Source: a virus. Taken from it: a DNA stretch of 46,533 nt. The DNA is taken from the IMG/VR virus record IMGVR_UViG_3300045988_064709. The stretch is one strand, 5' to 3'. The translations under genes were made by a program, and so were the position numbers. The notes under the pieces are model-generated. The model had not been told where the DNA came from and made no database searches. It was given only the letters and a program-made list of their open reading frames with translations. Below, piece after piece: positions 11,009 to 34,082 of this stretch; the stretch's first letter is position 1, and every line of letters starts with the position of its first letter.

Positions 11009-11463
11009 GCGACCGATCTTCCAGAAGTGAGGGGGGCGGCGGCGACCATCGCCCCGCTCCCCTTCTCGCTTACACACCGAAGTTTTATGAGGTTTTTCCG
11101 TACTATCTTTCCATCGGCATGACCTATGAGCAGTTTTGGGAACAGGACTGCGAATTGGTGAAGTATTACCGAAAGGCGGCGCAGATCAGGCAAGACCTGA
11201 GAAATCAAGACGCTTGGCTCCAAGGAGCTTATTTTTACGAAGCTCTTATTGATGCTGCCCCGGTTCTTCGTGCTTTCGCCAAGAAGGGAACCAAGCCCAC
11301 GCCGTATCGGGAAAGCCCCTATGAGCTGTTCAGTCGGCAGGACAAGAAACAACAGAAGCAGCTTCAAGAAAAACACGATGACCAAGCCAAGGCATACATG
11401 GAAGCCTTTATGGTGTCGGTCAATAAGAAATTTCAAGAGAAAGGTGGTGGCGTAAATGGCTGA
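10667..11463 (+). CDS. Tail assembly chaperone GT-like fusion (requires a -1 shift at 10978..10984)
   Basis: After the slip the frame reads GGG AAA CCT GAG... without stops to 11463. The listed ORF 11119..11463 is only the ATG-bounded tail of this frame. Confidence 0.65.
10978..10984 (+). promoter_or_regulatory. -1 programmed ribosomal frameshift slippery heptamer G GGA AAC
   Basis: An X XXY YYZ heptamer in the zero frame of 10667..11008. The -1 frame is open from 10963 to 11463. Confidence 0.75.
10991..11023 (+). promoter_or_regulatory. Putative frameshift-stimulating hairpin
   Basis: TGGAAGA/TCTTCCA stem plus inner CGG/CCG pairs, starting 6 nt after the heptamer. Confidence 0.5.
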
Positions 11464-14400
11464 CAATGTGGAAATTCAGGGGTTGGAGTTTCAGATCGTC
11501 AATGACAGTACGCAGGCGGTCGCAGGGCTTCAAAACCTGATTAACACGCTCAATCGTTTGAAAACCGCTACCAACGGCGGCGCAACGGGTCTGAGCAAGA
11601 CCGCTCAGGGTATTCGGGAGCTTTCCAATTCTCTGAAAGGCTTGAACAGCGGTGACGCTTCGCAGAAGATCACCCGGCTTACCAATGCGCTGACCGCTCT
11701 GAGTCAGGTTGGAAATGTGAAGATTTCTTCCTCCATCGCCAACCAGCTCACGGCAATCAACACCGCTCTCGCTGGCCTGAAATGGACGGACGGCGACAAG
11801 TTGACTTCCCTTGCCAACGGTTTACGCCCTCTCTCCGAGTTGGGTAAGGCCAACATGACCACCTTTATCAATCAGCTCTCCAAGCTGCCGAAGGTGATCG
11901 AGGATTTGGAAGCGGCGGACATTGACAAGTTCACACAGCAGATGACCGCTCTTGCCGCCGCCATGAAGCCTTTTGCCGATGAAATGCAGAAGGTGTCCAA
12001 CGGCTTCTCGGCGTTTCCGTCCAAAATCCAAAAGCTGATTACCAGCACGGAGAAATACAACGCTTCTGCCCGTAAAGCAACCTCCACTACCGGTAAGTTC
12101 ACAAGCGGATTGAAAGCGTTGAATGTCGCCGCTGTTGCAATCACTTTCCGCAAAATTGGACATTTCATCGCACAGGCGGTCACGGAGTCCAACAAGTATC
12201 AAGAAGACCTGAACCTGTTCACGGTTGCCTTGGGGCAGTATGCCGCCGAAGCTCAAAACTACGCTGAAAAGGTATCCGATGTTATGGGTATCGACCCGGC
12301 ACAGTGGCTCCGCAATCAGGGTGTTTTCAACACGCTGCTGACCGGCTTCGGTGACACGGCTGAACGAGCGCAGCTCATGAGCCAAAACCTGACACAGCTC
12401 GGCTACGATATTTCTTCCTTCTTCAATATTTCCATTGAAGACGCTATGCAGAAGTTACAGTCCGGTATTTCCGGCGAGTTGGAACCTCTACGGCGCTTGG
12501 GCTACGATTTGTCGCAGGCACGGTTGGAGCAGACCGCTTTGAACCTTGGTATCAAGGAAAGCGTTGCAAACATGACGCAGGCAGAAAAGGCCGAGCTGAG
12601 ATACTACGCCATTATGACTCAGGTAACGACCGCTCAGGGCGATATGGCGAGAACGCTGGAAGCTCCCGCAAACCAGCTTCGTATCTTGCAGGCACAACTT
12701 ACACAGGCCGCACGAGCGATCGGTAACATCTTCATTCCCGCACTGAACGCAATTCTTCCTTATGCAATCGCTGTTGTTCAGGTCATTCGGGAGATCGCTG
12801 ATGCCCTTGCCAACCTTGCAGGGTTCAAGCTAACCGATGTGGACTATTCGGGAGTGAATAGCGCTGCTGTCGGAGCCGGGTCTTTGGCTAATAATCTCGA
12901 TGACGCTGCCGGTGCTGCCAAGAAGCTGAAACAGTACACCGCAGGCTTTGACGAGCTGAATGTCTTTGCTCCCAACACGGGAAGCGGTTCCGGGGCGGGT
13001 GCTGGTGGCGCAGGCGGATTCGATTTCGATTTGCCTACCTACGATTTCCTTGGTGACGCTGTGCAGACTCGCATTGGTGAAATCAAGAAGATGATTGAGG
13101 ACACTCTCGCAGAGATCACCACGATTGTTTCCGGCTTTATGCTGGCGGTAGGTGCAATTCTGGTTGTAACCGGTGTGAATATTCCGCTGGGTGTCGGCCT
13201 GATGGCGGCGGGTGCAGTCGGCCTTGCGGCTACCGTTGGGCTGAATTGGACGGCTATGAGTAGCGAACTGGCAAGTACGCTGGCTCTCATTACAGGTGTT
13301 GTCGGCGGCTTCCTGCTGGCTCTTGGCGCAATTATGGCGTTCTCCGGGGCGAACCTTCCTCTTGGTATCGCTTTGATGGCCTTGGGTGGAGCAAGCCTTG
13401 TATCTGCCGCTGTTATCAACTGGCATAACAGCGACCGGCACCTCACTGACGCTTTGACCACCTTAACGGGAGTTCTGGCGGGTGCTTCTCTGGCGGTAGG
13501 CGCTATGTTGGCCTTTACCGGGGTCGCAACCGGGCTGGGTATTGCGCTGATGGCTGTTGGTGCTGTCACGCTTGTATCTGCCGCAGCTCTGAACTGGAAC
13601 AGTATCCCGGACGCTCTGGCTTCTCCCTTGTCCAGAGTAGGATTGCTGGTCAGCGGAGCAACCTTGGCGCTCGGCGCTATCCTCGCTTTCTCCGGGTGTA
13701 TGCCCCTCGGCATTGCGCTGATGGCTATTGGCGCTACTTCTTTGGTTTCTGTAATGGCTCTTAACTGGAATGGCCTGAGCGATGAAATCCAGAATGTGAT
13801 TGCCATTATTACCACGGTCGTATCTGTGGCGTTCCTCGCTATCGGTGCGGCACTGGCGTTCTCCGGGGCGAATATTCCGTTGGGTCTGGCTCTGCTGGCG
13901 GCGGGTGCGGTCACAATGGGTACGGCTATTATGCCGAACTGGAATGACCTCTCTGACAATGTTCAGCAGAAGATCAGCATGATTACCACCGTTGTCGGCG
14001 GCGCTCTCTTGGCGGTCGGCGCTATCCTTGCTCTGAGCGGAGTCGCCCTTCCTCTTGGTCTTGGCCTGATGGCGGCTGGCGCATTGAGCCTTGGCGCTGT
14101 TGCTACCCTGAATTGGGATTTTGTTGTTAATTCCATTAAGAAGGTTGTATCGGTCATTACAGGTATTCTCAGCGGTGCATTGATCGTTCTCGGTGTCCTG
14201 CTGTGCCTGAGCGGTGCGGGTGTTGGCCTTGGTCTGGCGGTACTGGCGGCGGGTCTGTCCCTGTCGTATGCGGCATGGACGCTGGACGATAACCCCATTA
14301 CTCGCTTTGTACGACAGATGGCAAACTCCATCATTGGACTTGTGAACGGTGTCATTGACGCAATCAATGATATGTTCCACATCCAGTTCAACGGCCTGTC

Positions 14401-14776
14401 TGTTATGGGTATCACGCTTATTCCGGCGTTTGATATTCGATTGGTGGATATTCCGCATATTCCGTTCTTTGAAGACGGCGGTTTCCCGAATGAAGGGCAG
14501 CTCTTTATCGCCCGTGAAGCGGGTGCGGAAATGGTCGGTGCGATGGGTCGCAGAACAGCGGTTGCCAACAATGACCAGATCGTTGAGGGTATCTCCGCAG
14601 GCGTGTCCATCGCCAACGATGGCGTAATCGCCGCTATTTACGCTCTGCTGAATGTCGTTGAGGAAAAGGACTTCTCCGTGAATATTGGTGACAATCAGAT
14701 CGGTGAGTCTTATGACCGTTATAACCGAGCCAGAGGTGTTCGCGTGAATACCGGCGCTTTCAGTAATGCCTACTAA
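11456..14776 (+). CDS. Tape measure protein
   Basis: 1106 aa, the largest gene, sitting after the chaperones. Helical N-terminal half, hydrophobic repeat core, conserved C-terminal region. Confidence 0.85.
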   Translation: MADNVEIQGLEFQIVNDSTQAVAGLQNLINTLNRLKTATNGGATGLSKTAQGIRELSNSLKGLNSGDASQKITRLTNALTALSQVGNVKISSSIANQLTAINTALAGLKWTDGDKLTSLANGLRPLSELGKANMTTFINQLSKLPKVIEDLEAADIDKFTQQMTALAAAMKPFADEMQKVSNGFSAFPSKIQKLITSTEKYNASARKATSTTGKFTSGLKALNVAAVAITFRKIGHFIAQAVTESNKYQEDLNLFTVALGQYAAEAQNYAEKVSDVMGIDPAQWLRNQGVFNTLLTGFGDTAERAQLMSQNLTQLGYDISSFFNISIEDAMQKLQSGISGELEPLRRLGYDLSQARLEQTALNLGIKESVANMTQAEKAELRYYAIMTQVTTAQGDMARTLEAPANQLRILQAQLTQAARAIGNIFIPALNAILPYAIAVVQVIREIADALANLAGFKLTDVDYSGVNSAAVGAGSLANNLDDAAGAAKKLKQYTAGFDELNVFAPNTGSGSGAGAGGAGGFDFDLPTYDFLGDAVQTRIGEIKKMIEDTLAEITTIVSGFMLAVGAILVVTGVNIPLGVGLMAAGAVGLAATVGLNWTAMSSELASTLALITGVVGGFLLALGAIMAFSGANLPLGIALMALGGASLVSAAVINWHNSDRHLTDALTTLTGVLAGASLAVGAMLAFTGVATGLGIALMAVGAVTLVSAAALNWNSIPDALASPLSRVGLLVSGATLALGAILAFSGCMPLGIALMAIGATSLVSVMALNWNGLSDEIQNVIAIITTVVSVAFLAIGAALAFSGANIPLGLALLAAGAVTMGTAIMPNWNDLSDNVQQKISMITTVVGGALLAVGAILALSGVALPLGLGLMAAGALSLGAVATLNWDFVVNSIKKVVSVITGILSGALIVLGVLLCLSGAGVGLGLAVLAAGLSLSYAAWTLDDNPITRFVRQMANSIIGLVNGVIDAINDMFHIQFNGLSVMGITLIPAFDIRLVDIPHIPFFEDGGFPNEGQLFIAREAGAEMVGAMGRRTAVANNDQIVEGISAGVSIANDGVIAAIYALLNVVEEKDFSVNIGDNQIGESYDRYNRARGVRVNTGAFSNAY
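13127..14290 (+). repeat. About 7 tandem coding repeats of roughly 174 bp (58 aa) inside the tape measure gene
   Basis: The L/I-N-W codon motif recurs at 13241, 13415, 13589, 13760, 13934 and 14108, with spacings of 174/174/171/174/174 nt. Each unit is a Gly/Ala/Leu-rich hydrophobic pair (..GAILAFSG.N.PLG.ALMA.GA..L....LNW). Confidence 0.8.
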
Positions 14777-18041: not shown

Positions 18042-19187
18042 ATGAAAGATACTGTCATTAAGGGCAACGGTAAGTCCCGTTCTGTCAAGGCTCCTACCGA
18101 TATGCCTGCAACCTTCGAGGAATGGCGCACACAGCTTCTCGCCGGAACTGCCACCCTCGACATTGGTCTGAACGCCGCAGGCTGTGATGTGGTCGGCACA
18201 GCCATGAGCAAGGCAAATCTGCTGTCCGACACCACCAAGTCGGCACTGGAACTGAGCGGCAGCGACCCCACGGTGAATGACGCTCTGTATGCTCTGAGCC
18301 AGAAAGGTTCCCCCGCAGAGGTGCGTGTCATCGCTGATACAGGCTCGACCGTCACCATGAGCAGGGGCGGTAAAACCCTGACCGGTAAGGTTGCTTCGAC
18401 CGGCTATGCCACTCTGTACCCGACCGAGCTGGGTGACTGGACTATCGTGTTTACTTATAACGGTTCTCAGAAAACCAAGGTTTACACGCTGGAAGTCATC
18501 GGTATTGTGTATGTTTATCCCTTTGTGGTTGGCGCTACGCTGGAAGCTACCTCTTGGGATAACATCGCCGCTGTTTCCAAGTTCGGTCAGGCTCCGAACT
18601 ACTGGAAGGTCGGTGACAAGAAGAACATTACCGTCAACGGTGTGACCTATGCGGCACAGATCATCGGTTTTGACCATGACACTCTGACCACCGCAGACGG
18701 TAGCCGCACCAAGGCTGGTATCACCTTCCAGTTGGTCGATTGTTTGAACACGACCTATTCCATGAACGGCTCCAATACCAATGTGAACGGCTGGCGTGGT
18801 TCCACTATGCGTACCTCCACAATGGCAACACTGCTGAACCAGCTTTCCTCTGACCTGAAAAGTGTGTTGAAGTTCGTCAACAAAGTGACCAGCAAGGGCA
18901 ACAATCAGTCCGGTTTGGAAACCACTTCTGACAAGCTGTTCCTTCTGTCCGAGATCGAAGTTTTTGGTGCTACTCAGTATTCTTACGCCGGTGAGGGTAA
19001 GCAATACGAGTATTATACCGCAGGCAACAGCACCATTAAGAAGGTCAATGGTTCTGCGCACAGCTGGTGGGAGCGTTCTCCTATTTCCGGCAACACCTCC
19101 GACTTCTGTAGTGTGAACAGCAGCGGCACCGCCGACTATTACACCGCCAGCTACTCCTGTGGCGTGTCCTTCGGCTTCTGCGTTTAA
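18042..19187 (+). CDS. Tail fibre / receptor-binding protein, DGR target 1
   Basis: 381 aa. The C-terminus WWERSPISGNTSDFCSVNSSGTADYYTASYSCGVSFGFCV is encoded by VR1. Confidence 0.85.
   Translation: MKDTVIKGNGKSRSVKAPTDMPATFEEWRTQLLAGTATLDIGLNAAGCDVVGTAMSKANLLSDTTKSALELSGSDPTVNDALYALSQKGSPAEVRVIADTGSTVTMSRGGKTLTGKVASTGYATLYPTELGDWTIVFTYNGSQKTKVYTLEVIGIVYVYPFVVGATLEATSWDNIAAVSKFGQAPNYWKVGDKKNITVNGVTYAAQIIGFDHDTLTTADGSRTKAGITFQLVDCLNTTYSMNGSNTNVNGWRGSTMRTSTMATLLNQLSSDLKSVLKFVNKVTSKGNNQSGLETTSDKLFLLSEIEVFGATQYSYAGEGKQYEYYTAGNSTIKKVNGSAHSWWERSPISGNTSDFCSVNSSGTADYYTASYSCGVSFGFCV
19052..19181 (+). repeat. DGR variable repeat VR1
   Basis: Ungapped alignment to TR 19715..19844. In the body I count 18 mismatches, all at TR adenines. 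Confidence 0.9.
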
Positions 19188-19211
19188 TCCTCGGTTTCAT
19201 CAACACCAATC

Positions 19212-19229
19212 CCGCCCCGTCAGGGGCGG
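19212..19229 (+). promoter_or_regulatory. GC hairpin downstream of VR1 (CCGCCCC GTCA GGGGCGG)
   Basis: 7-bp perfect stem with a 4-nt loop. The 24-nt context AATCCCGCCCCGTCAGGGGCGGTG is repeated after VR2. Confidence 0.75.
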
Positions 19230-19249
19230 TGTAAGAAAGGAATGTTGGC

Positions 19250-19678
19250 GTGTCAGTCATCAAAGCTATGCGTGGCGAAAGCTCCATGCAGTTCATCGAA
19301 ACCGCCAGACGGTTAGAGCTTCACGCTTTCTCTGTCTGCACCAAGGCTCCTAAAAGATACGCACCTCTGCTGACAAACCGTATCTTCGAGCTGGCTTCCA
19401 CGGTTCACGAGGAAGTCCGAGCGGCGAACAACATCTACCCGCACAATCAGCATGAAGCGCAAATGCGGCGAGATCACCTGATTAACGCCAACATCGCCCT
19501 TCAAAATCTTAGCCCGAAGCTGACTTTGCTCTATGACGCTATTCTTCAAAACCCTGAAAAGTGTCCGTGGATTGACCACGCCATGAAGGAATTTGGAGAG
19601 TACATCACGGACGAAGCACAGCTTATCTCCAAGGTTCGGAAAGCTGACCACGAGAGGTATAAAGACCTCCCTGTGTGA
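19250..19678 (+). CDS. avd: DGR accessory variability determinant (Avd-like)
   Basis: About 140 aa, helical and basic, located between the target gene and the TR as in BPP-1. GTG at 19250 or ATG at 19268. Confidence 0.7.
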   Translation: MSVIKAMRGESSMQFIETARRLELHAFSVCTKAPKRYAPLLTNRIFELASTVHEEVRAANNIYPHNQHEAQMRRDHLINANIALQNLSPKLTLLYDAILQNPEKCPWIDHAMKEFGEYITDEAQLISKVRKADHERYKDLPV

Positions 19679-19714
19679 GTTTTTCATTGGGTCAAGCCCT
19701 GTAATTGTTACCGT

Positions 19715-19844
19715 TTCTGCGAACAACTGGTGGGAGCGTTCTCCTAATTCCGGCAACACCAACAACTTCTGTAATGTGAACAACAACGGCAACGCCAACA
19801 ATAACAACGCCAGCAACTCCAATGGCGTGTCCTTCGGACTCTGC
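19715..19844 (+). repeat. DGR template repeat (TR)
   Basis: AAC/AAT-rich. It would translate as NNWWERSPNSGNTNNFCNVNNNGNANNNNASNSNG. It serves as template for both VR1 and VR2. Confidence 0.9.
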
Positions 19845-20066
19845 AACTTCGCATAGGTCAGTCGTAGTAACCCCTTTGGGCGAAATCGGTACCTTTTGCA
19901 GAGGGAGGGCTTGTTCCCGGCTACCAAGCCAAAACACCCCGTCCGATGTAGTCAGCCGGACGCTTCTTGCATGGTGAGCGATTGTACGGTAGCTCATTTC
20001 ATGGCTGGTACTACAAGCAGTTAGAACCCGTACCCGACAATAAGACTGTACGGAGGGGAACATTTT
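19715..20066 (+). ncRNA. Putative DGR RNA (TR plus about 220-nt spacer upstream of the RT)
   Basis: No credible ORF. It lies between avd and the RT. In characterised DGRs the TR-spacer RNA primes cDNA synthesis. The boundaries here are inferred. Confidence 0.5.
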
Positions 20067-21215
20067 ATGACAAGTGAAGAACGGAGAGAAGCCCGTTATC
20101 AGCGCAGAAAAGCCAAGCGGGATGAAGCTCGTCTGCGGCGAAGCAAAGAATGTGGTGATTTCGATGAAGTCTTTTCGTTCAGACACCTTTACCTTTCCGG
20201 GAAGAAATGCTGTAAGGGTGTCTACTGGAAAAACTCAACTCAGCGGTATATCGGCAATATCATTCCGATCATCGCAAAGACCCATCGTGAACTTCAAAAC
20301 GGAACCTTCAAGCACCGTGGTTTTCACGCTTTCACCATCATGGAACGAGGGAAAAAGCGGTATATCCGATCAGTCCATATCACGGAACGAGCGGTTCAAA
20401 AGTGTCTGTGTGACTACTGCTTGGTTCCCATCTATTCGGCCTGTTTTATCTATGACAACTCAGCCAGTTTGAAACACCGAGGTATGGACTTCGCCCTGCG
20501 CCGTATGACCTGTTACCTTCAACGGCATTACAGGAAGTACGGTCTGGAAGGAGGGGTTCTGCTTTACGATTTTCACAGCTTCTTTGACTCAGCTCCACAT
20601 GAGCCGCTGTTCCGTGAAGCCGACCGCAGACTTCATGACCCGAAAATCAGAGAGCTTGCGAACAGCTTTGTTACAGACTTCGGTTCTGTGGGCTTGGGTC
20701 TTGGCAGTCAGGTGTCTCAGACAAACGCCCTCATGCTTCCCAATATGATCGACCACTATTTCAAAGAGGTCTGCCGTATCAAAGCCTATGAGCGATACAT
20801 GGACGATGGTGCGGCAATCAGCCCTGACATTGATGACCTGTATCTCTGTATGGACGGGTTGAAGATCATCTGCGAGAAGTGCGGTCTGGAACTGAACTTG
20901 AAGAAGACAAGGGTCATTCCTCTCAGAGATTATTACCGCTGGTTGAAAACGAGGTTCATCATCACACCGACCGGCAAGGTTGTTCGGAAGATGAACAGGG
21001 ACTCAACAAAAATCGTTCGACACAAGCTCAGGGCTTTCCGAGGAAAGCTCGACCGGGGCGAAATGACCTTGGCTGACATTCGGTGTTCCGTGGACTCCTA
21101 CAACGGTCACATGAAGCGAGGTCACAGCTTCAAGGTGCGGCAGCGCACCAATCAGTATTTCAAATCATTGTACGGGTTCTACCCGGACGAGAAAGGTTGG
21201 AAAAGCCATGTATAA
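20067..21215 (+). CDS. DGR reverse transcriptase
   Basis: 382 aa. Carries LGLGSQVSQ (the DGR-type LGxxxSQ motif 4) and RYMDDGA (YxDD). RBS GGAGGGG. Confidence 0.9.
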   Translation: MTSEERREARYQRRKAKRDEARLRRSKECGDFDEVFSFRHLYLSGKKCCKGVYWKNSTQRYIGNIIPIIAKTHRELQNGTFKHRGFHAFTIMERGKKRYIRSVHITERAVQKCLCDYCLVPIYSACFIYDNSASLKHRGMDFALRRMTCYLQRHYRKYGLEGGVLLYDFHSFFDSAPHEPLFREADRRLHDPKIRELANSFVTDFGSVGLGLGSQVSQTNALMLPNMIDHYFKEVCRIKAYERYMDDGAAISPDIDDLYLCMDGLKIICEKCGLELNLKKTRVIPLRDYYRWLKTRFIITPTGKVVRKMNRDSTKIVRHKLRAFRGKLDRGEMTLADIRCSVDSYNGHMKRGHSFKVRQRTNQYFKSLYGFYPDEKGWKSHV

Positions 21216-21876
21216 AATTATCAAGAAGGACGCAGTTCTCGGCATTGTGAGCAATCTAACTTGGGTATGTATGCAGGAAAACGGCTGCTACGGCCTGACG
21301 GTCGAGGACAATGCACAGGGTATTGCCTTGAACGGCACCGTGTACCATGTCAACGGACACCCCAAACTGGACGGTGCTGAAACGGTTTCGGTCGAAGAAG
21401 TGGACGATGGCGTTTACGCTTCCAGTCTGACCGCTCTGCTGACTGACCCGAACGACATCCGTAATTCTGAGCAGTTCCGCAAGGCTGTTCAGATGTTCGC
21501 CAAAAGCCTTGACGAAGACTCTGCGATGATGATTGCAACCATCTACGACCCCTATCAGGTCGGTCATGCCTATGCTGTTGGTGATTATTTCACCTACGGC
21601 GTGAACGGTGTAGGCGACCCGCAGCTCTACAAGGTAGTACAGGCGCACACTTCTCAAGCAGATTGGAAGCCTGACACACTTCCCGCTCTCTACACTCCGA
21701 TTGGCCTGACCCCCTCCGGCTACCCCGTGTGGACTCAGCCCACAGGCGCTCATGACGCTTACAACAAGGGTGACATTGTGAATTACAACGACAAGCTGTA
21801 CCGCAGTCTGATTGACGGGAATGTGTATTCCCCGGACGCTTATCCCGCTGGCTGGGAAGAATACACCAGCGAGTAA
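21208..21876 (+). CDS. Protein with two C-terminal CBM5/12-like carbohydrate-binding repeats
   Basis: 222 aa. YAVGDYFTYG...LYKVVQAHTSQADWKP and YNKGDIVNYNDKLYRSLIDGNVYSPDAYPAGWEEY both fit the CBM5/12 pattern. Overlaps the RT by 8 nt. Confidence 0.5.
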   Translation: MYKIIKKDAVLGIVSNLTWVCMQENGCYGLTVEDNAQGIALNGTVYHVNGHPKLDGAETVSVEEVDDGVYASSLTALLTDPNDIRNSEQFRKAVQMFAKSLDEDSAMMIATIYDPYQVGHAYAVGDYFTYGVNGVGDPQLYKVVQAHTSQADWKPDTLPALYTPIGLTPSGYPVWTQPTGAHDAYNKGDIVNYNDKLYRSLIDGNVYSPDAYPAGWEEYTSE

Positions 21877-22296: not shown

Positions 22297-22692
22297 ATGC
22301 TCGAAACCATTTTGCACAACCTGACGAACATTGGCTGGGCTATGCTCATTTTCCTGTGTGCCTACCTATCCAATGTGTCCTTTTCTCTGTATTACAACAT
22401 CAAAATCCTGCTGGAACCGTTCAGCAAGGAAAAGCTGATAAACTCAGGCTTGAAGATCGCCGCTTTTGTCTGCGGTCTGACCTTGCTGTGTGTGGCTATT
22501 ACCACGCTGCCGCTGTTTGCGGATATGGTCGGGTGGGAAATTCCGTCTGAGTATGTAGATATTTTCAGTAATTTGGTGATTATTGGTGCGGTACTCATGG
22601 TGTCCTGCAAGTACATCGCAGAAGCATTTACGAAATTTAAGGCCATTTTGGACGCTACCAAGGAGGACAAGAGCTATGATGAAGTCAAGTGA
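22297..22692 (+). CDS. Holin
   Basis: 131 aa with 3-4 TM segments and a charged C-terminus. GGAGG RBS. Its 3' end overlaps the endolysin start. Confidence 0.7.
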   Translation: MLETILHNLTNIGWAMLIFLCAYLSNVSFSLYYNIKILLEPFSKEKLINSGLKIAAFVCGLTLLCVAITTLPLFADMVGWEIPSEYVDIFSNLVIIGAVLMVSCKYIAEAFTKFKAILDATKEDKSYDEVK

Positions 22693-23533
22693 ACTGGTCG
22701 CCAAGGTCGTTGATATTGCTAAGCACTACAAGACCCTGTATGTTATGGGGTGCTTTGGTGCGCCGCTGACCGACACAAACAAGTCTCGGTATATCAAGAA
22801 CCACCCCTACAACATGGCGGCAGCTCGTACCTCTATGATTATGGCGGCGACCCCTGACACCTTCGGCTTTGACTGCGTGAACCTTATTAAAGCCGTTCTG
22901 TGGGGCTGGACAGGGGATAAAACCAAGTCCTACGGCGGCGCAAAATACGCCACCAACGGCGTACCTGACGAGGGCGCTGACACTATGATTAAGAGGTGCA
23001 AGGACGCTTCCGCTTCCGGGTGGGACAAGGTTGACCCCGGCGAAGTGGTGTGGACTACGGGACATATCGGCGTGTATATTGGCAACGGCCTTGCGGTCGA
23101 GTGTTCCCCTCGTTGGGCGAACAATGTGCAGATCACCGCTGTCGGTAACATCGGGAAGAAGAACGGGTACAATACCCGTATGTGGAAGAAGCACGGACAC
23201 CTCCCCTATGTGACCTACGACAAAACCGTGACCCCCGCACAGCCCGAAACGGTCAAGCCCGTTCCTACCACCGAGGTCAAGGCGAAGGGTGTTGCACGGT
23301 CTTTCAATAAAGTTGTGGCAGGCACTTACACCGTGACCGCTGGTGCTGGCCTGAATGTCCGTGACGCTGCCGGGACGGACAGTAAAGTGCTGGTGACAAT
23401 CCCCAAGGGAACCACCATCAAGAACTACGGCTACTACACCGTTGTAAACGGCGTTAAATGGCTCTATGTGGCGTTCTCGCACAAGAGGGTGAATTATACT
23501 GGCTTCGTGCATGAACGCTTCCTGAGCCGCTGA
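22676..23533 (+). CDS. Endolysin: NlpC/P60-type peptidase with a C-terminal SH3b domain
   Basis: FGFDCVNLI (catalytic Cys context), GHIGVYIG (His), and a C-terminal SH3-like LNVRDAAGTDSKVLVTIPKGTTI. AGGAGG RBS precedes the ATG at 22676. Confidence 0.75.
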   Translation: MMKSSELVAKVVDIAKHYKTLYVMGCFGAPLTDTNKSRYIKNHPYNMAAARTSMIMAATPDTFGFDCVNLIKAVLWGWTGDKTKSYGGAKYATNGVPDEGADTMIKRCKDASASGWDKVDPGEVVWTTGHIGVYIGNGLAVECSPRWANNVQITAVGNIGKKNGYNTRMWKKHGHLPYVTYDKTVTPAQPETVKPVPTTEVKAKGVARSFNKVVAGTYTVTAGAGLNVRDAAGTDSKVLVTIPKGTTIKNYGYYTVVNGVKWLYVAFSHKRVNYTGFVHERFLSR

Positions 23534-24007: not shown

Positions 24008-24043
24008 AAGACACTCCCTACCGATTAAGGTAAGGAGTGTCTT
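24008..24043. terminator. Bidirectional hairpin between convergent genes
   Basis: AAGACACTCC(CTACC) / (GGTAA)GGAGTGTCTT gives about 14 bp of stem with one mismatch, with A/T runs on both sides. It overlaps the integrase stop codon. Confidence 0.6.
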
Positions 24044-25686
24044 TTAGTTTGAACGAACACCGTTCCCCACACAATGTAGGGTTCGGATATGCGCTCAATG
24101 GTACACTCAGACTCCCCAAAATCGAACCCTGTCGCTTCTTCGGCGGCGGGGTTCTTTTCTACCCGGAAAGTCTTGGTTTTGCAAGAGGTTAGGTTATATG
24201 CGGTAGTGATTTTATATCCGTCAGGTTCGTCCCACACTGTAACGGAATTGACGAGCAAATCAATGAGCCGCCTGCGGAAGTCTTCGTCTTCGATATTCCC
24301 GTATTTGAACTGGCTCAACCAGAATACGATCTGGTCACGGTCAATTCGGTAGACGAATTTTTCCTCAGCTTTAATCTCTTTGTTGAGGGTCTTCTTTTCA
24401 TGTTCGAGCTGGACAAGTCGGTTCATCAATGTTTCGGAAGCAATACCCTTTTCAATGGCAGCGGTGATATTTGTGATTGACTTTTCGACCTCCGATAACT
24501 GAGCGGTCAACTGCGGAATGTGTGTGTCGTTTATTAAATCCCGTTCACTCTGCCGGATTGCCATGTCTGCAATTTCATCAATAAGTTGATCGGTCAAAAG
24601 GTTGAGAGCATCACGGGCTACTATCCCTTCGATATAATCTTTTTTCAAAGGTCGCTTGTCACACCCAAGTTTTCTCTTTTTCGTGTAGCAGGAATAGTAG
24701 TGGTAGACCTTGCCATGTCTACCGGCTCCGCTTTCACCATTCATAGAAGCCCCACAATGACCGCAGAACAGCTTTCCAGACAAGAGGTAATCTACCTTAG
24801 CCTTACCCCTTGCTGGGGCTGTAGCGGTCTTAGAAAGCCGCCGCTGTACCGTTTCAAACAGCTCCTTATCAATGATGGCGGGAATACCATTTTCAATGAC
24901 AATATCCTTGTAGGTATAAGTGCCGATATAGCGAGTATTACGGAACATGGCCTTAAAGCTACTGCGGTTGAACTCCGTGTTTTTGGCGGTCTTATATCCG
25001 GCAGAGTTAAACTTTCGGCAAATGCCAGCGACACTTTCACCGTTGGCATAAAGAGAGAACGCTTCCTGAACGATGTGGGCGGTGTCGGGGGCAACGACCA
25101 GTTTGTGATTTTCCACCTTGTACCCAAGGGGGATATGACCGCCTACACTGTGGCACTTCAAGGCGGACTCACGCATACCTCTTGTGACCTTCTGCGACAG
25201 CTCGGCGGAGAAAAACTCAGCCATACCCTCTAACACAGATTCCAAAATGATACTCTCAGGGCTGTCGGTAAGGTGTTCTGTGGCGGAGAGGACTTTCACG
25301 CCGTTCTTCCGCAGACGCATTTTCATAATTGCGCTATCGTTGCGGTTACGAGCAAAACGGTCGAGCTTCCAGACGATGACATATTCCCAATTCTGTTTTG
25401 CGCTGTCTGCAATCATTTCCATGAGGTGAACCCGCTTTTCCACATCTTTGCGAGCGGTCGTTGCTCGGTCAACATAGATTGCTACAATGCGGTAGTGGTT
25501 TGCTTTACAGAAGGCACGGCAGTCACGAAGCTGCCCTTCAATGGATTGGTCACTTTGGCCTGTGGAGCTATACCGAAGATAGAGAGCAACATCTTGATCG
25601 CCGTTGTAAAGCGTATATGGGTCTTCCTGAAATTGAGAGATTTCTTCCTCTGTCAGACAGGAAAGGTCGATTGGAAATTTTTTCAT
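24025..25686 (-). CDS. Large serine recombinase (integrase)
   Basis: 553 aa. Contains VALYLRYSSTGQ (catalytic Ser), a recombinase domain, the zinc ribbon CGHCG...YYSCYTKKRKLGC, and a C-terminal coiled coil. Confidence 0.9.
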   Translation of the reverse strand: MKKFPIDLSCLTEEEISQFQEDPYTLYNGDQDVALYLRYSSTGQSDQSIEGQLRDCRAFCKANHYRIVAIYVDRATTARKDVEKRVHLMEMIADSAKQNWEYVIVWKLDRFARNRNDSAIMKMRLRKNGVKVLSATEHLTDSPESIILESVLEGMAEFFSAELSQKVTRGMRESALKCHSVGGHIPLGYKVENHKLVVAPDTAHIVQEAFSLYANGESVAGICRKFNSAGYKTAKNTEFNRSSFKAMFRNTRYIGTYTYKDIVIENGIPAIIDKELFETVQRRLSKTATAPARGKAKVDYLLSGKLFCGHCGASMNGESGAGRHGKVYHYYSCYTKKRKLGCDKRPLKKDYIEGIVARDALNLLTDQLIDEIADMAIRQSERDLINDTHIPQLTAQLSEVEKSITNITAAIEKGIASETLMNRLVQLEHEKKTLNKEIKAEEKFVYRIDRDQIVFWLSQFKYGNIEDEDFRRRLIDLLVNSVTVWDEPDGYKITTAYNLTSCKTKTFRVEKNPAAEEATGFDFGESECTIERISEPYIVWGTVFVQTKRHSLP

Positions 25687-26321
25687 GCAAATCTCCTTTT
25701 TAGCTCCATGACTCTACCGACAAAGCGCAATCGTCCAATTTCAACACCGCCGAAAACACGGGGAGGATAGTGTGGGTTAAAAGAGCGAAGGGTCACAGTA
25801 TCTTCATCAATGCTGATTTTCTTAACAAATCCTTCTTCGTCATCAACAATGACAACCATAAGAGTATCTGTTTCGGGAGGTGTATCCTTTTTAACCAGCA
25901 CTAAATCGTGATCGTCTAAGACTGGCGACATACTATCTCCGTCAACTTGTAACCAGAAACAATCATCACAGTCATATTCGGGGTCAACTTGTTCATACCC
26001 CAATGCTTCTTGCTGAGCGATGACACCTTTTCCTGCGGACGCATGACCGAAAATAGGTCGCTTGCAATTCTTTTCATAAGGTTCGGTGGTTAAACCAACA
26101 GAGGACAAGTGAAAGAGAGGGTCGTCAGTTTCACCTTTCAAATACTCAGCCGTTGTTCCAAGATTGATAGCGAGAGTTTTCAAGTCTTCATCTGAAATCA
26201 TGCGGTCAGGCTTTTTATCTACATCGTTCAAATAATATTTGGGGCGGTCGATAAGTTTGCAAATATAGGTGACGCTTTTCCCTTGTTGTTTGGCTAAATC
26301 TCTAATACGACTTGTGTTCAT
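25683..26321 (-). CDS. CI/LexA-like repressor (HTH plus S24 peptidase domain)
   Basis: N-terminal HTH (IRDLAKQQGKSVTYICKLI). C-terminal GDSMSP and VKK form the Ser-Lys dyad. GAAGGAGG RBS before the ATG at 26321. ATGA overlap with int. Confidence 0.85.
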   Translation of the reverse strand: MNTSRIRDLAKQQGKSVTYICKLIDRPKYYLNDVDKKPDRMISDEDLKTLAINLGTTAEYLKGETDDPLFHLSSVGLTTEPYEKNCKRPIFGHASAGKGVIAQQEALGYEQVDPEYDCDDCFWLQVDGDSMSPVLDDHDLVLVKKDTPPETDTLMVVIVDDEEGFVKKISIDEDTVTLRSFNPHYPPRVFGGVEIGRLRFVGRVMELKRRFA

Positions 26322-26339
26322 AAATACCTCCTTCAAAAA

Positions 26340-26961: not shown

Positions 26962-27158
26962 TGAAAAAAGTATTTGGAGTATTGGCATTTCTCTCGTTTT
27001 TCTACCTGTTGGGTGTCGTTGGTGCGGTAGAGCAAGACACAATGGCTCTCGGCGCAGGCATTGTTCGCATGGGTATCGGCCTTGGCTGCTTCTGGCTGTT
27101 CTGTGAGCTGTCTGGTGCGTTTTATCCCGCCCCGCCGAGAAAAAGAAAGAGCCGCTGA
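26961..27158 (+). CDS. Small membrane protein (2 TM segments)
   Basis: 65 aa from the ATG at 26961: MKKVFGVLAFLSFFYLLGVVG...GIGLGCFWLFCEL. Confidence 0.45.
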   Translation: MKKVFGVLAFLSFFYLLGVVGAVEQDTMALGAGIVRMGIGLGCFWLFCELSGAFYPAPPRKRKSR

Positions 27159-27241
27159 CGGAACTGGTACTTCCATCAACGGCAAGCGTAAAAGCTCAAT
27201 CTGATTATATCAGAACCTATCATTTTGTAAAGGAGAACTTT

Positions 27242-28075
27242 ATGAATAGTACGATTGCAAAACTCGCTGACGAGTTCGAGAAGATGGAGAAAATCATCGC
27301 TTCTCAGAAGAAGATGATCGAAACCCTTATGCCTACGGGCTATGTTGATACCGATACCGTCAAACTTCACCTTAATTCTGTGTATGGTGTCATGTTCGGC
27401 GGTCGCCCCTCTCCGAAGCGCTGCAAGCTGGAAGACTGTTCTTGGGACGAGATCAATATGTATTCCTCCTTCGGCCTTGCCGACAAGATGTTCGAGGTCG
27501 GTGATACCAAGAAGTTCCGTCTGGCTGACGGCTCCTACCTGACTGCCCGTATCATCGGGTTCAACCATGACTACGCAAGAGACGGCAGTCTGGTTCATAT
27601 CACCTTTGAGACTGTGGAAACCCTTGACGGTGACATTCCTATGAATGAGAAGCCTACCAACGAGGGCGGCTGGGACGCTTCCTATCTCCGTGCCAAGCTC
27701 AACGGCAACTTCTTCGAGAAGCAGCTTCCCGCTGATTTGAAAGCGGTCATCAAGCCCGTGGTGAAGATGACCGCCAAGAGCAGCAAGAACGAAGTACGGG
27801 TTCCTTCCGTTGACAAGCTGTTCGTTCTTTCTGAGCAGGAGGTCTTCGGTCGCAAGATTTATTCCTGCGGTTATGAGGGTAAGTGGTACGAGTGGTACAA
27901 GCGAGAGAACACGCCCTATGGCAAGTGCAAGCAGAATGGTGAGAAGGATTGGAGATGGGAGCGTTCTCCTTGTTCCGGCGACACCAACTACTTCTGTAGG
28001 GTGAACTACAACGGCATCGCCAACGGTAACAACGCCAGCTACTCCTTTGGCGTGTCCTTCGGCTTCTGCATTTGA
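27242..28075 (+). CDS. DGR target 2, a paralogue of the C-terminal half of target 1
   Basis: 277 aa. Shares SWD, IIGF(D/N)HD, LF(L/V)LSE.EVFG and W.ERSP....GVSFGFC with 18042..19187. AAAGGAG RBS. Confidence 0.85.
   Translation: MNSTIAKLADEFEKMEKIIASQKKMIETLMPTGYVDTDTVKLHLNSVYGVMFGGRPSPKRCKLEDCSWDEINMYSSFGLADKMFEVGDTKKFRLADGSYLTARIIGFNHDYARDGSLVHITFETVETLDGDIPMNEKPTNEGGWDASYLRAKLNGNFFEKQLPADLKAVIKPVVKMTAKSSKNEVRVPSVDKLFVLSEQEVFGRKIYSCGYEGKWYEWYKRENTPYGKCKQNGEKDWRWERSPCSGDTNYFCRVNYNGIANGNNASYSFGVSFGFCI
27956..28069 (+). repeat. DGR variable repeat VR2
   Basis: Ungapped alignment to TR 19731..19844 shows 13 mismatches at TR adenines plus one T-to-G difference at 28000. Confidence 0.85.
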
Positions 28076-28093
28076 TCGGGTATCTCGTAAATC

Positions 28094-28111
28094 CCGCCCC
28101 GTCAGGGGCGG
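28094..28111 (+). promoter_or_regulatory. GC hairpin downstream of VR2, identical to the one after VR1
   Basis: CCGCCCC GTCA GGGGCGG within the identical 24-nt context. Confidence 0.75.
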
Positions 28112-28127
28112 TGAAAGGAGTGAAAAC

Positions 28128-28532
28128 ATGAATGTCAATCGTAAGGTTGGCACTGGCTTTGAAAGAGACTTATGCCTGAGCCTGTCGGGTTGTGGCTTTT
28201 GGGCGCACAATCTCACTCAGAACAGTCAAGGTCAGCCGTTCGATGTGATTGCGGCTCGAAACGGTATCAGCTATCCCATTGACTGTAAGGATTGTTCCAA
28301 GAACATTTTCAAGATGGAGCGTATCGAAGAAAACCAGTTTTCCGCTATGACGCTCTGGAAGGAAACCGGGAATGGAGAGGGCTGGTTTGCAATCAGGTTG
28401 ATAACTGGTGAAGTTCGATTTATCTCCTTCTCTACGCTTTTGGAATTGTCTGTTTTGCGAACCGTGCTGTCTGCCAACGATATTAGGCGATACGGTATCA
28501 CACTCGGAGAGTGGGTGTCCCAATGCAAGTGA
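28128..28532 (+). CDS. Holliday junction resolvase (Hjc/PD-(D/E)XK-like)
   Basis: 134 aa. The G.GFER....L...G, D+IA and DCK pattern is present. AAAGGAG RBS. Confidence 0.6.
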   Translation: MNVNRKVGTGFERDLCLSLSGCGFWAHNLTQNSQGQPFDVIAARNGISYPIDCKDCSKNIFKMERIEENQFSAMTLWKETGNGEGWFAIRLITGEVRFISFSTLLELSVLRTVLSANDIRRYGITLGEWVSQCK

Positions 28533-29923
28533 CTGTTGGCAATCAGCTTCGAATTGAAAATCCGTCTGAGCAGTTGCTTACATGGTGCAAGAAGCAACTT
28601 ATCCTTCCCAATCCTGAGTACGCCAAGAAAGTCCGTATGCACTTTTGGGTCGGCAACACCCCTGAGAAGTTGTATCTGTTTCAATGGGACGGTGACACAT
28701 TAGTTCTTCCCTATGGTTGTCTGAATGATGTGCTGGTGATGGACGATTGCAACATGAAGGTCAATCTTCCTACACCGACCGAGGTGGACTTCGGTTGCGC
28801 CATTCCGCTCTATGACTACCAAGTAGAAGCCAAGGAAGCACTGATAACTGCCTACTATGGTATTCTTCAAGCCCCTGCGGGGTGTGGTAAAACGCAGATC
28901 GGAATTGCTGTTGCGGCAGATACAGGTCGAAGGACACTCTGGCTGACCCATACACGGGATTTGCTCGTACAGAGTAAAAGCCGAGCGGAGCAGTACATGA
29001 GTCCTTCTCTGACTGGCACGATTACCGAAGGTAGGGTTCAAATCGGTAAGGCAATCACCTTCGCAACGGTGCAGACCATGTGCAACCTCAATCTGAGTCA
29101 ATACCGTGATGTTTGGGATTGTATCATCGTGGACGAGTGCCACCGTGTAGCCGGAACCCCGACCGCTATGACGCAGTTCTCAAAGGTGCTGAACGCTCTG
29201 GCAGCTCGGCACAAGTACGGCCTATCTGCTACGGTTCATCGAGCAGACGGTATGATTGCCGCCACCTACGCATTGCTGGGCGGGATTGCCTATCAAGTGC
29301 CGGAGGAAGCGGTGAAAGACAAGATCATGACCGTTAGCGTTCTCCCCCGTGCCACCCATCAAGGACTCAGCCGTGAGTTCTTGGACACGGACGGTACGAT
29401 CATCTATGCCAAGTTGGTCAATTTCCTCGCTGACCGTTATCCCCGAAACAATCTGATTGTCGCTGATCTTGTGGCAAACCGAGATCACTACAATCTCATT
29501 CTCTCTGACCGGCTGACGCATTTGGAAACTCTGATGAACAGGCTTCCGCCCGACCTGAGAAAACAGGCGGTCATGATTGATGGGAAGATGACCACGAAGA
29601 AAGCCAAAGCTCTCCGAGAGCAGGCCATTGAGGAAATGCGGCAGGGGCGCAAGCGGTATCTGTTCGCCACTTACTCTCTGGCGAAAGAGGGTCTGGATAT
29701 TCCTCGGCTCGACCGGCTGTACCTGACTACGCCGCAGAAAGACTACGCTGTAATAACTCAGAGCATTGGTCGTATCGCTCGTACTTTCGAGGGAAAGGGT
29801 GAACCCATCGCCTATGATTATGTGGACGATGGTATCCAGTATCTCGTGAGAAGTTACAAGAAGCGGTGTACCACCTACCGCAAGTGCGGTTGTAAATTCA
29901 TCGAACAGGAGGTGTCGAAGTGA
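28523..29923 (+). CDS. SF2 DEAD/DEAH-box helicase
   Basis: Motif I APAGCGKT, motif II VDECHR, motif III SAT, motif VI QSIGRIAR. Confidence 0.8.
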   Translation: MQVTVGNQLRIENPSEQLLTWCKKQLILPNPEYAKKVRMHFWVGNTPEKLYLFQWDGDTLVLPYGCLNDVLVMDDCNMKVNLPTPTEVDFGCAIPLYDYQVEAKEALITAYYGILQAPAGCGKTQIGIAVAADTGRRTLWLTHTRDLLVQSKSRAEQYMSPSLTGTITEGRVQIGKAITFATVQTMCNLNLSQYRDVWDCIIVDECHRVAGTPTAMTQFSKVLNALAARHKYGLSATVHRADGMIAATYALLGGIAYQVPEEAVKDKIMTVSVLPRATHQGLSREFLDTDGTIIYAKLVNFLADRYPRNNLIVADLVANRDHYNLILSDRLTHLETLMNRLPPDLRKQAVMIDGKMTTKKAKALREQAIEEMRQGRKRYLFATYSLAKEGLDIPRLDRLYLTTPQKDYAVITQSIGRIARTFEGKGEPIAYDYVDDGIQYLVRSYKKRCTTYRKCGCKFIEQEVSK

Positions 29924-31025: not shown

Positions 31026-31334
31026 TTGATACAGGAAGATAAGAGTGCAACGCTCTCATGTAACAACGACCAGACTCTCTTTGTTCCCACACAGACCGAG
31101 AACGGTGAAGTCATTTATCTGGCTCGAAAGCTCACCCCTACTGAGTGTGCTTCCCTTCAAGGGTTCGAGAAAGATTGGTGTGCGCTGGTTCCTCACAAGG
31201 ACTCTGCGGAGTACAAGATGTGGGGAAATGGCATGGCTTTTCCCTGTATGCTCTACATCATGGAGGGTGTTCAGGAAGTCCTTGCCGAAAGGTATCTGGA
31301 TAATCTCTTTGGAGGTGATACCACTGAACCTTGA
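31026..31334 (+). CDS. C5 methyltransferase C-terminal fragment (motifs IX-X)
   Basis: RKLTPTECASLQGF (motif IX) and WGNGMAFP (motif X). It has no ATG of its own; the frame opens just inside G tract 4. Confidence 0.7.
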   Translation: MIQEDKSATLSCNNDQTLFVPTQTENGEVIYLARKLTPTECASLQGFEKDWCALVPHKDSAEYKMWGNGMAFPCMLYIMEGVQEVLAERYLDNLFGGDTTEP

Positions 31335-33929: not shown

Positions 33930-34082
33930 ATGATTGAAATTGATTGTCGCAAGTGCGCCAATGCAGACTTGGAAGCGGATTGCTGTAAGCTCTACGGTAA
34001 CGACCCTGATACTGCCGTTCGGGAATGTGCCGCTGACGAATTTGTGAATTATAAGGAGGTAAACAAAAATGGAATGGCTTGA
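33930..34082 (+). CDS. Small Cys-rich protein (50 aa)
   Basis: MIEIDCRKCANADLEADCCKLYG... It fills the Erf-exonuclease gap and overlaps the next start. Confidence 0.35.
   Translation: MIEIDCRKCANADLEADCCKLYGNDPDTAVRECAADEFVNYKEVNKNGMA

Follow-up and report, generated by a model that had tools for sequence, protein, structure and literature searches.

An active adenine-templated diversity-generating retroelement with two DUF6273 targets in a gut phage that probably infects Dysosmobacter

The question raised by the locus between positions 18042 and 21215 of the IMG/VR virus record IMGVR_UViG_3300045988_064709 is whether it holds a complete diversity-generating retroelement (DGR) and, if so, whether that element is still at work. 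The window, that is, the whole stretch of DNA that was analysed, is 46 533 nt long, and all features described below lie on its + strand. An earlier note had read this interval, from the letters alone, as a DGR in the tail fibre locus with the gene order of Bordetella phage BPP-1 (target-avd-TR-RT), and every component that it named was found there, encoded by genes of the expected size (a target of 381 aa, an Avd candidate of 142 aa and a reverse transcriptase, RT, of 382 aa in the ORF list). Evidence from within and beyond the window supports the reading of a complete DGR, and we put at about 95 % the probability that this is an active DGR of target-avd-TR-RT architecture, carried by a temperate, siphovirus-like phage that infects Oscillospiraceae of the human gut, probably Dysosmobacter.

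The first evidence comes from the two repeats. The template repeat (TR, 19715–19838) has 37 adenines in 19715–19837, with 17 AAY codons and three other variable codons, and lies, as had been proposed, within a false Asn-rich ORF, a mechanical 87-aa reading frame (19593–19856) read in a different frame from avd, whose 3′ end it overlaps. Ungapped alignment at an offset of 663 of TR with the 3′ end of target gene 1 (19052–19175) gave 18 mismatches, all of which fall on TR adenines and none on the other three bases, exactly as the earlier note had counted; for a TR with 38 A in 124 nt the hypergeometric probability of this is 1.6e-11. The claim that the copies are otherwise identical until their extreme 3′ end also holds, the first mismatch at a base other than adenine being 19176/19839. 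As a record of mutagenesis, however, the count must be lowered to 17. The remaining mismatch, A19838 against C19175, is at a position that is C in at least 90 % of 36 copies of the first variable repeat (VR1) and 18 copies of the second (VR2), and because C stands there in essentially all copies and is followed by a fixed C-to-T change, we regard it as part of a fixed boundary (IMH versus IMH*). VR1 as delimited here thus spans 19052–19174, with mutagenized sites at 19059–19159 and 17 A-templated differences in the window. Seventeen of the 18 mismatched adenines, and 37 of the 38 TR adenines overall, occupy codon position 1 or 2; this confinement avoids stop codons, and substitution of adenines in TR cannot turn any variable codon into a stop.

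VR1 ends in an invariant GC-rich stretch of 14 nt (19161–19174, GGCGTGTCCTTCGG) that is common to TR, VR1 and VR2. Immediately after it, both VRs read CTTCTGC and TR reads ACTCTGC, a difference fixed in all copies. The IMH-like 3′ boundary of VR1 (CTTCTGCGTTTAA, 19175–19187), which recurs at VR2 with two substitutions, differs from the TR counterpart (ACTCTGCAACTTC) by fixed changes that are identical in all VR1 and VR2 copies. The pattern of IMH at the VRs and IMH* at TR is therefore present, and a function as IMH is putative.

Target gene 1 (18042–19187), the recipient of VR1, opens with an unmodelled N-terminal region, continues with a central beta-sandwich and ends in a domain of Pfam family DUF6273 (E = 1.4e-17; 64.5 bits against a cut-off of 23.5), with the VR at the C-terminal end of that domain. 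The AF2 model had a pLDDT of 47 and was confident only for residues 93–158, which form beta strands; the alignment behind it was shallow, consisting of homologues 89–96 % identical plus target 2. A PDB profile search with the target alignment found nothing. DUF6273 proteins of other phages have been modelled as lectin-like (PMC10743442), and by analogy with them the targets described here may adopt a C-type lectin fold. The gene lies downstream of the tape measure gene (11456–14776) and of tail genes, and it is this synteny that suggests the label 'tail fibre'. In PHROG it matched phrog_37900 (E = 1.5e-28) and no tail-fibre family, one match being annotated 'Hoc-like head decoration'. We consider it a candidate for a protein of the tail tip or one that binds the receptor.

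The element extends beyond the interval from 18042 to 21215, in which the components named so far do lie. The same TR (19731–19837) also serves as template for VR2 (27956–28062), which ends a second target gene encoding 277 aa (27242–28075), and 13 of the 14 mismatches between VR2 and TR are at adenines; 27956–28062 contains 12 A-templated differences and a single one at another base (T19775 to G). Target 2, a short N-terminal segment followed by a DUF6273 domain (53.7 bits against the same cut-off of 23.5) with the VR again at the C-terminal end, shares 41 % identity with target 1 across 248 aa. VR2 and TR resemble each other in nucleotide sequence over the repeat only. The gene opens the replication module and immediately precedes genes for an Hjc-like resolvase and a helicase; a relative with a 69 % identical RT shows the same arrangement. 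No signal or structural family was matched by target 2, and no signal peptide was apparent by eye. That target 2 might be a non-virion, early-expressed variable binder, cytoplasmic or associated with the lysogen, is a speculative reading that we think unlikely.

The element also takes in a GC-rich hairpin or cruciform (CCGCCCC-GTCA-GGGGCGG), which follows each VR and never TR: one copy (19212–19229) is 24 nt past the stop codon of target 1 and the other, identical to it, 18 nt past that of target 2 (28094–28111). Its 7-bp stem and 4-nt loop are of the lengths laid down in the published rule (a GC stem of 7–10 bp and a GRNA loop of 4 nt, 4–34 bp from the VR; PMC3240598), and the loop sequence GTCA departs from GRNA at its second position. 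In diverged relatives the changes in the stem are compensatory. Folded as single-strand DNA, the 91-nt windows that follow the VRs fell short of significance when each was scored as a whole (z = −1.1 to −1.5), and the argument for the hairpin is accordingly drawn from its conservation and the compensatory changes. We propose that it is a putative target-recognition element.

Two paralogous, putatively lectin-like genes in one genome could in principle have arisen by duplication and then drifted apart under diversifying selection or recombination, next to an RT of unrelated type (group II intron, retron or defence). The 41 % identity of the targets and weak matches of the RT to group II and DRT models would fit such a history, whereas selection or recombination cannot restrict changes to the adenine positions of an invariant, non-coding third copy, nor would it leave nucleotide likeness between VR2 and TR over the repeat alone in genes whose remainder is 41 % identical as protein. 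The RT itself (20067–21215) also speaks against it. As marks of a DGR RT we took [ILV]GxxxSQ in motif 4, YxDD, and a closer relationship to bRT than to the RTs of group II introns, retrons or defence systems. The motifs reported earlier are in place (LGSQVSQ at residues 212–218, YMDD at 244–247), and the best solved relative, the 328-aa RT of PDB 8ub7 (E = 1.6e-14), aligns I181-GSLTSQ with L212-G-x-x-x-S-Q218 and R74 with R98 and shares YMDD; we take 8ub7 to be the BPP-1 bRT from its length and motif numbering, and a literature search on 8UB7 returned nothing useful. Drt3a came next in the PDB search (E = 4.6e-4), where RTs of group II introns or retrons gave no match below 0.01. Among the candidate classes tried and rejected, the group II intron RT model (NCBIfam TIGR04416) scored 53 bits against a cut-off of 300 and the Drt3a defence model 25 bits against a cut-off of 200, PADLOC yielded just generic or weak RT matches, and an Rfam scan of the window returned RT-2 alone, with no intron or retron RNA. 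The expectation that the RT would fall outside the group II intron and retron classes was thus borne out, and its motifs and relatives indicate an RT of DGR type. A history of duplication beside an unrelated RT is already contradicted by these data, and we give it next to no credence.

That a DGR produced this pattern does not by itself tell whether the element still functions in this genome, and it might be a decayed relic whose TR/VR pattern records past retrohoming. Evidence for activity comes from comparison between contigs. In favour of a relic are the divergent Avd candidate (see below) and the one mismatch at a base other than adenine in VR2. Yet all DGR ORFs are intact, the catalytic YMDD is present, and TR, the RT-2 RNA, the IMH-like ends and both hairpins are intact as well. 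Among relatives drawn from the 67 IMG/VR loci with this RT, TR was identical in 45 of 62 copies, and the VR sequences were almost all distinct (48 of 49 for VR1, 23 of 24 for VR2). On contigs with identical TR, 49 % of A cells differed from TR in VR1 (n = 36) and 48 % in VR2 (n = 18), against 0–0.8 % of C, G and T cells in the VRs. TR is thus invariant, and the very high variation of both VRs is confined to A-templated sites. A 96.9 % identical contig from Mexican faecal samples, with the same TR, has 19 differences in VR1, of which 18 are A-templated, and contigs with 95–99 % identical RTs nearly all differ in their VRs on an identical TR, so that turnover of the VRs is faster than neutral phage divergence. 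Moreover, at 12 loci, including a Dysosmobacter segnis prophage, variants of TR at bases other than adenine are mirrored in VR1 and VR2 of the same contig; recent single-base variants of TR have already entered the VRs, and transfer among these close relatives runs one way, from TR to VR. We therefore judge it very improbable that the element is a fossil, and hold to the reading of an active DGR. In four loci no VR1 was seen in the ungapped scan, and tblastn found target 1 in all four, so VR1 was probably overlooked there through divergence or indels.

The gap between TR and the RT gene is filled by a spacer RNA, Rfam RF03077 (RT-2; 19853–20078), which overlaps the ribosome-binding site and start codon of the RT gene. 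The match is full length (model positions 1–222 of 222) at 167.2 bits against a gathering score of 40, and the RNA was found full length and in the same place in all eight diverged relatives tested, with compensatory changes at six pairs. The 3′ flank of TR (CTCTGCAA, 19839–19846), which begins immediately 3′ of the last transferred base, is complementary to a segment of the spacer (TTGCAGAG, 19896–19903) over 8 bp, and three compensatory pair changes are seen in two relatives, L060 and L064. Unconstrained RNAduplex comparison of the TR flanks with the spacer was no better than shuffles, and the duplex surfaced only through comparison of lineages: among RT-2-bearing IMG/VR loci, 39 of 63 distinct types have at least six contiguous in-register pairs; permuting the partners gave a mean of 9.3 and a maximum of 17. 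By analogy with BPP-1, the duplex probably sets the priming site, and G19903 at its end is the predicted priming base, corresponding to Sp A56 of BPP-1 (PMC6182149). In BPP-1, G acts as the priming base in the double mutant U118C/A56G (PMC6182149); the same is predicted here, with G19903, as the natural state. The exact start of the cDNA is uncertain, since A19838, the predicted first template base, is never seen transferred into any VR.

The paper that described the RT motifs linked only RT-10 to DGRs and left the others unassigned (PMC5737381), and a literature search for RT-2 together with DGR found nothing useful. The match to RF03077 (Weinberg et al. 2017) is full length and adjoins an RT gene; the difference is that a conserved segment unpaired in the model pairs here with the 3′ flank of TR. 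In a large clade of gut-phage DGRs, RT-2 seems to provide the scaffold for cis-priming, with a priming duplex defined by covariation and, in this lineage, a natural G as the priming base, a reading both likelier and more modest than that of a non-virion target 2.

The gene in the Avd position (19250–19678, GTG start, 142 aa), between target 1 and TR, is less clear-cut. By an Avd we understand a pentameric, basic four-helix bundle encoded between target and TR. The AF2 model of the candidate is a four-helix bundle (pLDDT 80), and it matched the PHROG family 'Avd protein of DGR' (E = 2.5e-6). The top Foldseek matches were two four-helix bundles, 2gsc and 2rld, with probabilities of 0.99–1.0 but E values of at least 0.13; the title of 2rld is 'S23 ribosomal protein family'. 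The candidate was without a Pfam or NCBIfam match, and PDB sequence and profile searches returned chance matches only. The earlier note had described a helical, basic protein of about 140 aa; helical and of that length it is, but not notably basic, with a pI of 7.8 and 19 K+R against 18 D+E, and bAvd is described as highly basic (PMC5758913). Its homology to bAvd is weak, and an Avd role for it is putative.

Our working model is as follows. A transcript that reaches from the 3′ end of avd through TR and across the RT-2 spacer would fold so that 19839–19846 pair with 19896–19903, and the RT, together with the Avd-like four-helix-bundle protein, would use G19903, the spacer nucleotide that ends this pairing, to prime cDNA synthesis. 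Copying of TR would begin near 19838/19837 and run leftwards, faithfully at C, G and T and with misreading at adenines, and the cDNA would then replace the homologous stretch in the two recipient genes, which may be marked by the shared GC-rich 14-mer, the IMH-like tail and the GC-rich hairpin a few tens of nucleotides downstream. In two DUF6273 proteins, one in the tail module and one at the head of the replication module, the C-terminal face could then take up to ~6e21 forms.

Much of this resembles BPP-1 (mtd-avd-TR-brt): A-specific mutagenesis through AAY codons, a GC-rich 14-mer followed by IMH versus IMH* differences, a GC-rich hairpin with a 4-nt loop downstream of the VR (PMC3240598), and conservation of the RT motifs IGxxxSQ, R74 and YMDD (PMC6182149; PMC3240598). 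There are also differences, in that the present element has two targets and BPP-1 one, the targets are DUF6273 proteins without detectable sequence match to Mtd, the spacer RNA is Rfam RT-2 and not the RT-10 motif of BPP-1 (PMC5737381), the predicted priming base is G and not A, the Avd candidate is near-neutral and not highly basic like bAvd, and the hairpin loop is GTCA and not GRNA. Closer parallels are found in other phages of gut Bacillota, the Faecalibacterium prophages Lelie and CP11 (PMC11792537) and the 'tentaclin'/tgt2 phages of the gut virome (PMC10743442), whose DGRs likewise have one TR and two DUF6273 targets in which the VR forms the C-terminal end of that domain, one target being larger and multi-domain and the other small and mostly DUF6273; the present phage is a different one, with Dysosmobacter as its probable host. 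In INPHARED no named phage matched, and only faecal contigs from one Mexican study did.

The DGR described here, of common architecture, is a well-documented but ordinary instance of a known system, which rewrites the tips of two putatively lectin-like phage proteins at adenine-templated positions. Two by-products may interest DGR specialists, namely RT-2 as a DGR spacer RNA and a second target kept beside replication genes, and neither alters the existing view of DGR mechanism. The Rfam motif RT-2 can now be interpreted as the spacer RNA of a DGR, and covariation extends the cis-priming geometry of BPP-1 to many gut-phage DGRs. Were target 2 indeed non-virion, the DGR would diversify, in addition to a tail protein, a non-structural protein, for example one countering a variable host factor. 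The element is a clean natural DGR and a very abundant one, near-identical copies of which number in the thousands across gut metagenomes, and as its probable host, Dysosmobacter segnis, is cultured, it offers a handy system for two-target diversification.

A direct repeat of 130 nt (19052–19181 and 19715–19844; 85 % identity, offset 663) links the 3′ end of the 381 aa target 1 gene (18042–19187) to a non-coding copy downstream, the template repeat (TR, 19715–19838). When 19052–19175 was re-aligned without gaps to 19715–19838, all 18 mismatches fell on an adenine of the downstream copy, the first mismatch at any other base being at 19176/19839; with adenine at 38 of the 124 nt of the TR stretch, the chance of 18 random mismatches all doing so is 1.6e-11. 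In the frame of the upstream gene, 37 of the 38 TR adenines occupy codon position 1 or 2, and the downstream copy lies within a mechanical ORF of 87 aa (19593–19856), which reads as a run of Asn codons and overlaps, in a different frame, the 3′ part of the gene before it; this is the false Asn-rich ORF described in an earlier note on this DNA. For these reasons the adenine-only pattern claimed in that note is real and far beyond chance, although one of its 18 mismatches is not mutagenic. Opposite A19838, essentially every VR copy (at least 90 %) has C, and a fixed C-to-T change adjoins this site, so the eighteenth mismatch belongs to a fixed boundary, much like the difference between IMH and IMH*, the VR and TR 3′ boundary elements of Bordetella phage BPP-1, and 17 mutagenic mismatches are left. 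With 17 AAY and three further variable codons to draw on, VR1, the 3′ end of target 1 (19052–19174), can encode about 6e21 protein variants, and none of these codons can become a stop by adenine substitution.

The RT (20067–21215, 382 aa) matches RVT_1 and phrog_1423, and its closest solved relative is the 328 aa RT of PDB 8ub7 (E = 1.6e-14), which from its length and residue numbering we take to be the Bordetella phage enzyme, bRT. The alignment places L212-GSQVSQ on I181-GSLTSQ, R98 on R74 and YMDD on YMDD; in bRT, contacts to the template and to incoming bases have been reported for I181, R74 and Q187 (bioRxiv 10.1101/2023.10.23.563531). PADLOC gave only generic or weak RT matches. A group II intron RT was rejected, the corresponding model scoring 53 bits against a cut-off of 300, and this score together with the aligned motifs upholds assignment of the protein as a DGR-type RT. 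The Avd candidate (19250–19678, 142 aa) matches two PHROG families, 'Avd protein of DGR' (E = 2.5e-6) and one that is uncharacterised, with no match among Pfam, NCBIfam or PDB sequences. AlphaFold2, using an alignment of 37 homologues, modelled it as a four-helix bundle (mean pLDDT 80), for which the best Foldseek matches in the PDB were 2gsc and 2rld, the latter entitled 'S23 ribosomal protein family', at probabilities of 0.99–1.0 but E-values of only 0.13–0.5. The BPP-1 protein, bAvd, is a member of this fold family. The anticipated helical protein of about 140 aa is thus present, but with a predicted pI of 7.8 it is not the basic protein that had been described. With target, Avd candidate, TR and RT all found, the reading of the locus as a complete diversity-generating retroelement (DGR) is supported, and its avd-TR-RT order with an upstream target is the commonest DGR architecture described (PMC5758913).

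The bounds of 18042–21215 first given for the element are, however, too narrow. Sliding the TR along both strands of the whole window with A positions ignored revealed one further copy, at 27940, which matches the TR from 19731 on with 13 A-site differences and one at a non-adenine (T19775 to G). This copy (VR2, 27956–28062) forms the 3′ end of a 277 aa ORF, target 2 (27242–28075), the product of which carries DUF6273 (E = 3e-14) and shares 41 % identity with target 1 across 248 residues. VR1 and VR2 both end in GGCGTGTCCTTCGG-CTTCTGC, whereas the TR ends in GGCGTGTCCTTCGG-ACTCTGC. Target 2 lies outside the structural module, immediately before the genes for the resolvase and helicase, and has the same neighbours in a relative with a 69 % identical RT, which is without an integrase or repressor between the lysis genes and target 2. 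DGR targets that are non-adjacent but within the same prophage are already known (PMC5758913). In a close relative (L061), the 18.7 kb locus contains target 1 and the TR and is long enough to include target 2, yet no copy was present at the expected distance; this phage may be able to do without the second target or may carry it elsewhere. Minus-strand sequence immediately before target 2 (27151–27231) has a strong promoter-like site (11/12 matches, with TG) and a terminator-like hairpin, between which a small antisense or divergent transcript could run.

Target 1 matches Pfam DUF6273 (E = 1.4e-17) and phrog_37900. For gut-phage DGR targets, published models give DUF6273 a C-type lectin fold in which the VR lies at the surface (PMC10743442); our model of target 1 (pLDDT 47) was too poor for a test of fold, and the description of this protein as a tail fibre is drawn solely from gene position. 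One TR serving two DUF6273 targets, one larger and one small, as in this phage, has been described in the Faecalibacterium prophages Lelie and CP11 (PMC11792537); the two-target arrangement is already published. Homologues of target 1 numbered 2466 in the protein database at E <= 1e-5 and single 90 %-identity clusters had up to 4468 members, counts that indicate a very common phage; the VR probably splits one would-be cluster into many.

By PHROG annotation of the window, genes for the large terminase (3275–4927), portal (5089–6525), major head protein (7498–8526), tape measure (11456–14776) and tail (to 18029) precede the DGR (18042–21215), and are followed by those for a CBM_5_12 protein (21208–21876), endolysin (22583–23533), a serine integrase (24025–25686) and CI-like repressor (25683–26336), both on the minus strand, target 2, an Hjc-like resolvase (mechanical ORF 28047–28532; likely ATG start at 28128), helicase (28511–29923), DNA methyltransferase (29920–30741), DNA polymerase (31045–33168), an Erf-like annealing protein (33171–33926), a RecE-like exonuclease (34069–35115) and primase (41045–42646). 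Placed after the DGR and ahead of the lysis genes, the CBM_5_12 gene has its start 8 nt upstream of the RT stop codon, and its 222 aa product has two CBM_5_12 carbohydrate-binding modules. There are two serine recombinase genes, one for the 553 aa integrase beside the repressor and the other, integrase/invertase-like (1804–2625, 273 aa), just upstream of the terminase region. Nucleotides 1–99 recur exactly at 46435–46533 and the faecal contig MT837742 spans the end–start junction, from which we conclude that the genome, of about 46.4 kb, is complete and was assembled as a circle. The only matching deposited phage records were unannotated contigs of Mexican faecal samples, and a prophage of Dysosmobacter segnis BX15 has a 97 % identical RT with its own VR1 and TR. 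In a diverged relative (L055), a tmRNA gene (13791–14158, minus strand) about 2.6 kb beyond the RT suggests a prophage beside, or integrated at, the host ssrA.

Variation in natural populations follows the same rule. In the faecal contig MT837512, 96.9 % identical over the locus, the TR is identical and VR1 differs at 19 sites, 18 of them A-templated. IMG/VR held 67 loci with this RT, and among the repeat copies the TR was identical in 45 of 62, whereas 48 of 49 VR1 and 23 of 24 VR2 sequences were distinct. Across the 36 loci with identical TR, VR1 differed from it in 49.3 % of cells at A, 0.5 % at C, 0 % at G and 0.8 % at T; for VR2 (18 loci) the figure was 48.2 % at A versus 0.3, 0 and 0.8 % at the other bases. 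Where the TR has non-adenine substitutions, the same base appears in the VR1 and VR2 of that lineage (12 loci, including the Dysosmobacter prophage), the signature that would be expected of continuing one-way transfer from TR to VR. The T of one AAT codon (TR 19773–19775) is the sole non-adenine position to vary repeatedly, mostly T to G, in roughly 10–20 % of VR1 and VR2 copies (19775 in the TR, 19112 in VR1, 28000 in VR2); in this phage the change at 28000 yields AGG (Arg). Either a low-level non-adenine error beside AA or selection for Arg could account for it. In a few IMG/VR contigs (L028, L031 and L052; also L037 and L038) the TR itself has A-to-N changes, which in the first three (TR at about 9649 or 7861) are identical to those in the contig's own VR1; either the two repeats were mis-assembled or VR-to-TR conversion really took place.

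Rfam recognized a single family in the whole window, RF03077 (RT-2 RNA), at 19853–20078 (167 bits, full model). The BPP-1 spacer doubles back onto the TR 3′ end to form a short duplex, with Sp A56 acting as primer and copying of the template beginning at TR G117 (PMC6182149; bioRxiv 10.1101/2023.10.23.563531). Here, the 8 nt directly 3′ of the last shared base (19839–19846, CTCTGCAA) are the exact complement of 19896–19903 (TTGCAGAG), a segment drawn as unpaired in the Rfam consensus, and two diverged relatives have both strands altered together (TTCCGTAA with TTACGGAA, and CTCCGTAA with TTACGGAA). At least 120 IMG/VR stretches contain the conserved RT-2 core; the matches listed, pooled with the loci described above, gave 63 different pairings of a TR flank with a spacer segment, 39 of which form at least six contiguous pairs in the same register, as against a mean of 9.3 and a maximum of 17 when partners were permuted 1000 times. 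The spacer base at the duplex end is A in most lineages of this set; in our phage it is G, paired to C, the same state as in the U118C/A56G double mutant of BPP-1, where priming is from G (PMC6182149). By this analogy, the spacer segment would pair with the TR flank and cDNA synthesis is predicted to start at G19903. A19838, nominally the first template base, was not observed as transferred into any VR, which places the true cDNA start or integration junction at or left of 19837. The Shine–Dalgarno sequence of the RT gene (GGAGGGG, 20052–20058, 8 nt 5′ of the ATG at 20067) pairs with 19936–19944 in the long-range closing helix of the RT-2 RNA, with compensatory changes in relatives, and folding for reverse transcription could therefore hide the ribosome-binding site of the RT.

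An identical hairpin, CCGCCCC-GTCA-GGGGCGG, follows both VRs (19212–19229 and 28094–28111) and was found neither after the TR nor elsewhere in the window. Both copies fit the published rule for DGR targets, namely a GC-rich stem of 7–10 bp with a 4 nt loop, 4–34 bp from the VR, in which structure rather than stem sequence counts (PMC3240598). In all lineages examined, a hairpin of this kind accompanies each VR1 and VR2 but no TR, and the stems show compensatory changes (CCGCTCC/GGAGCGG, CGCGCCCC/GGGGCGCG and CGCACCCC/GGGGTGCG). Loops are mostly G-N-N-A; compared with the published GRNA, the GTCA of this phage differs in its second base. These hairpins would serve in target recognition.

About 31,000 DGRs have been counted in a published survey, with enrichment in the human gut, as quoted in bioRxiv 10.1101/2023.10.23.563531. 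Two points are of some interest to specialists: the assignment of the Rfam RT-2 RNA as a probable scaffold for DGR priming, in which the TR:spacer duplex co-varies, and a second target that keeps its place beside replication genes.
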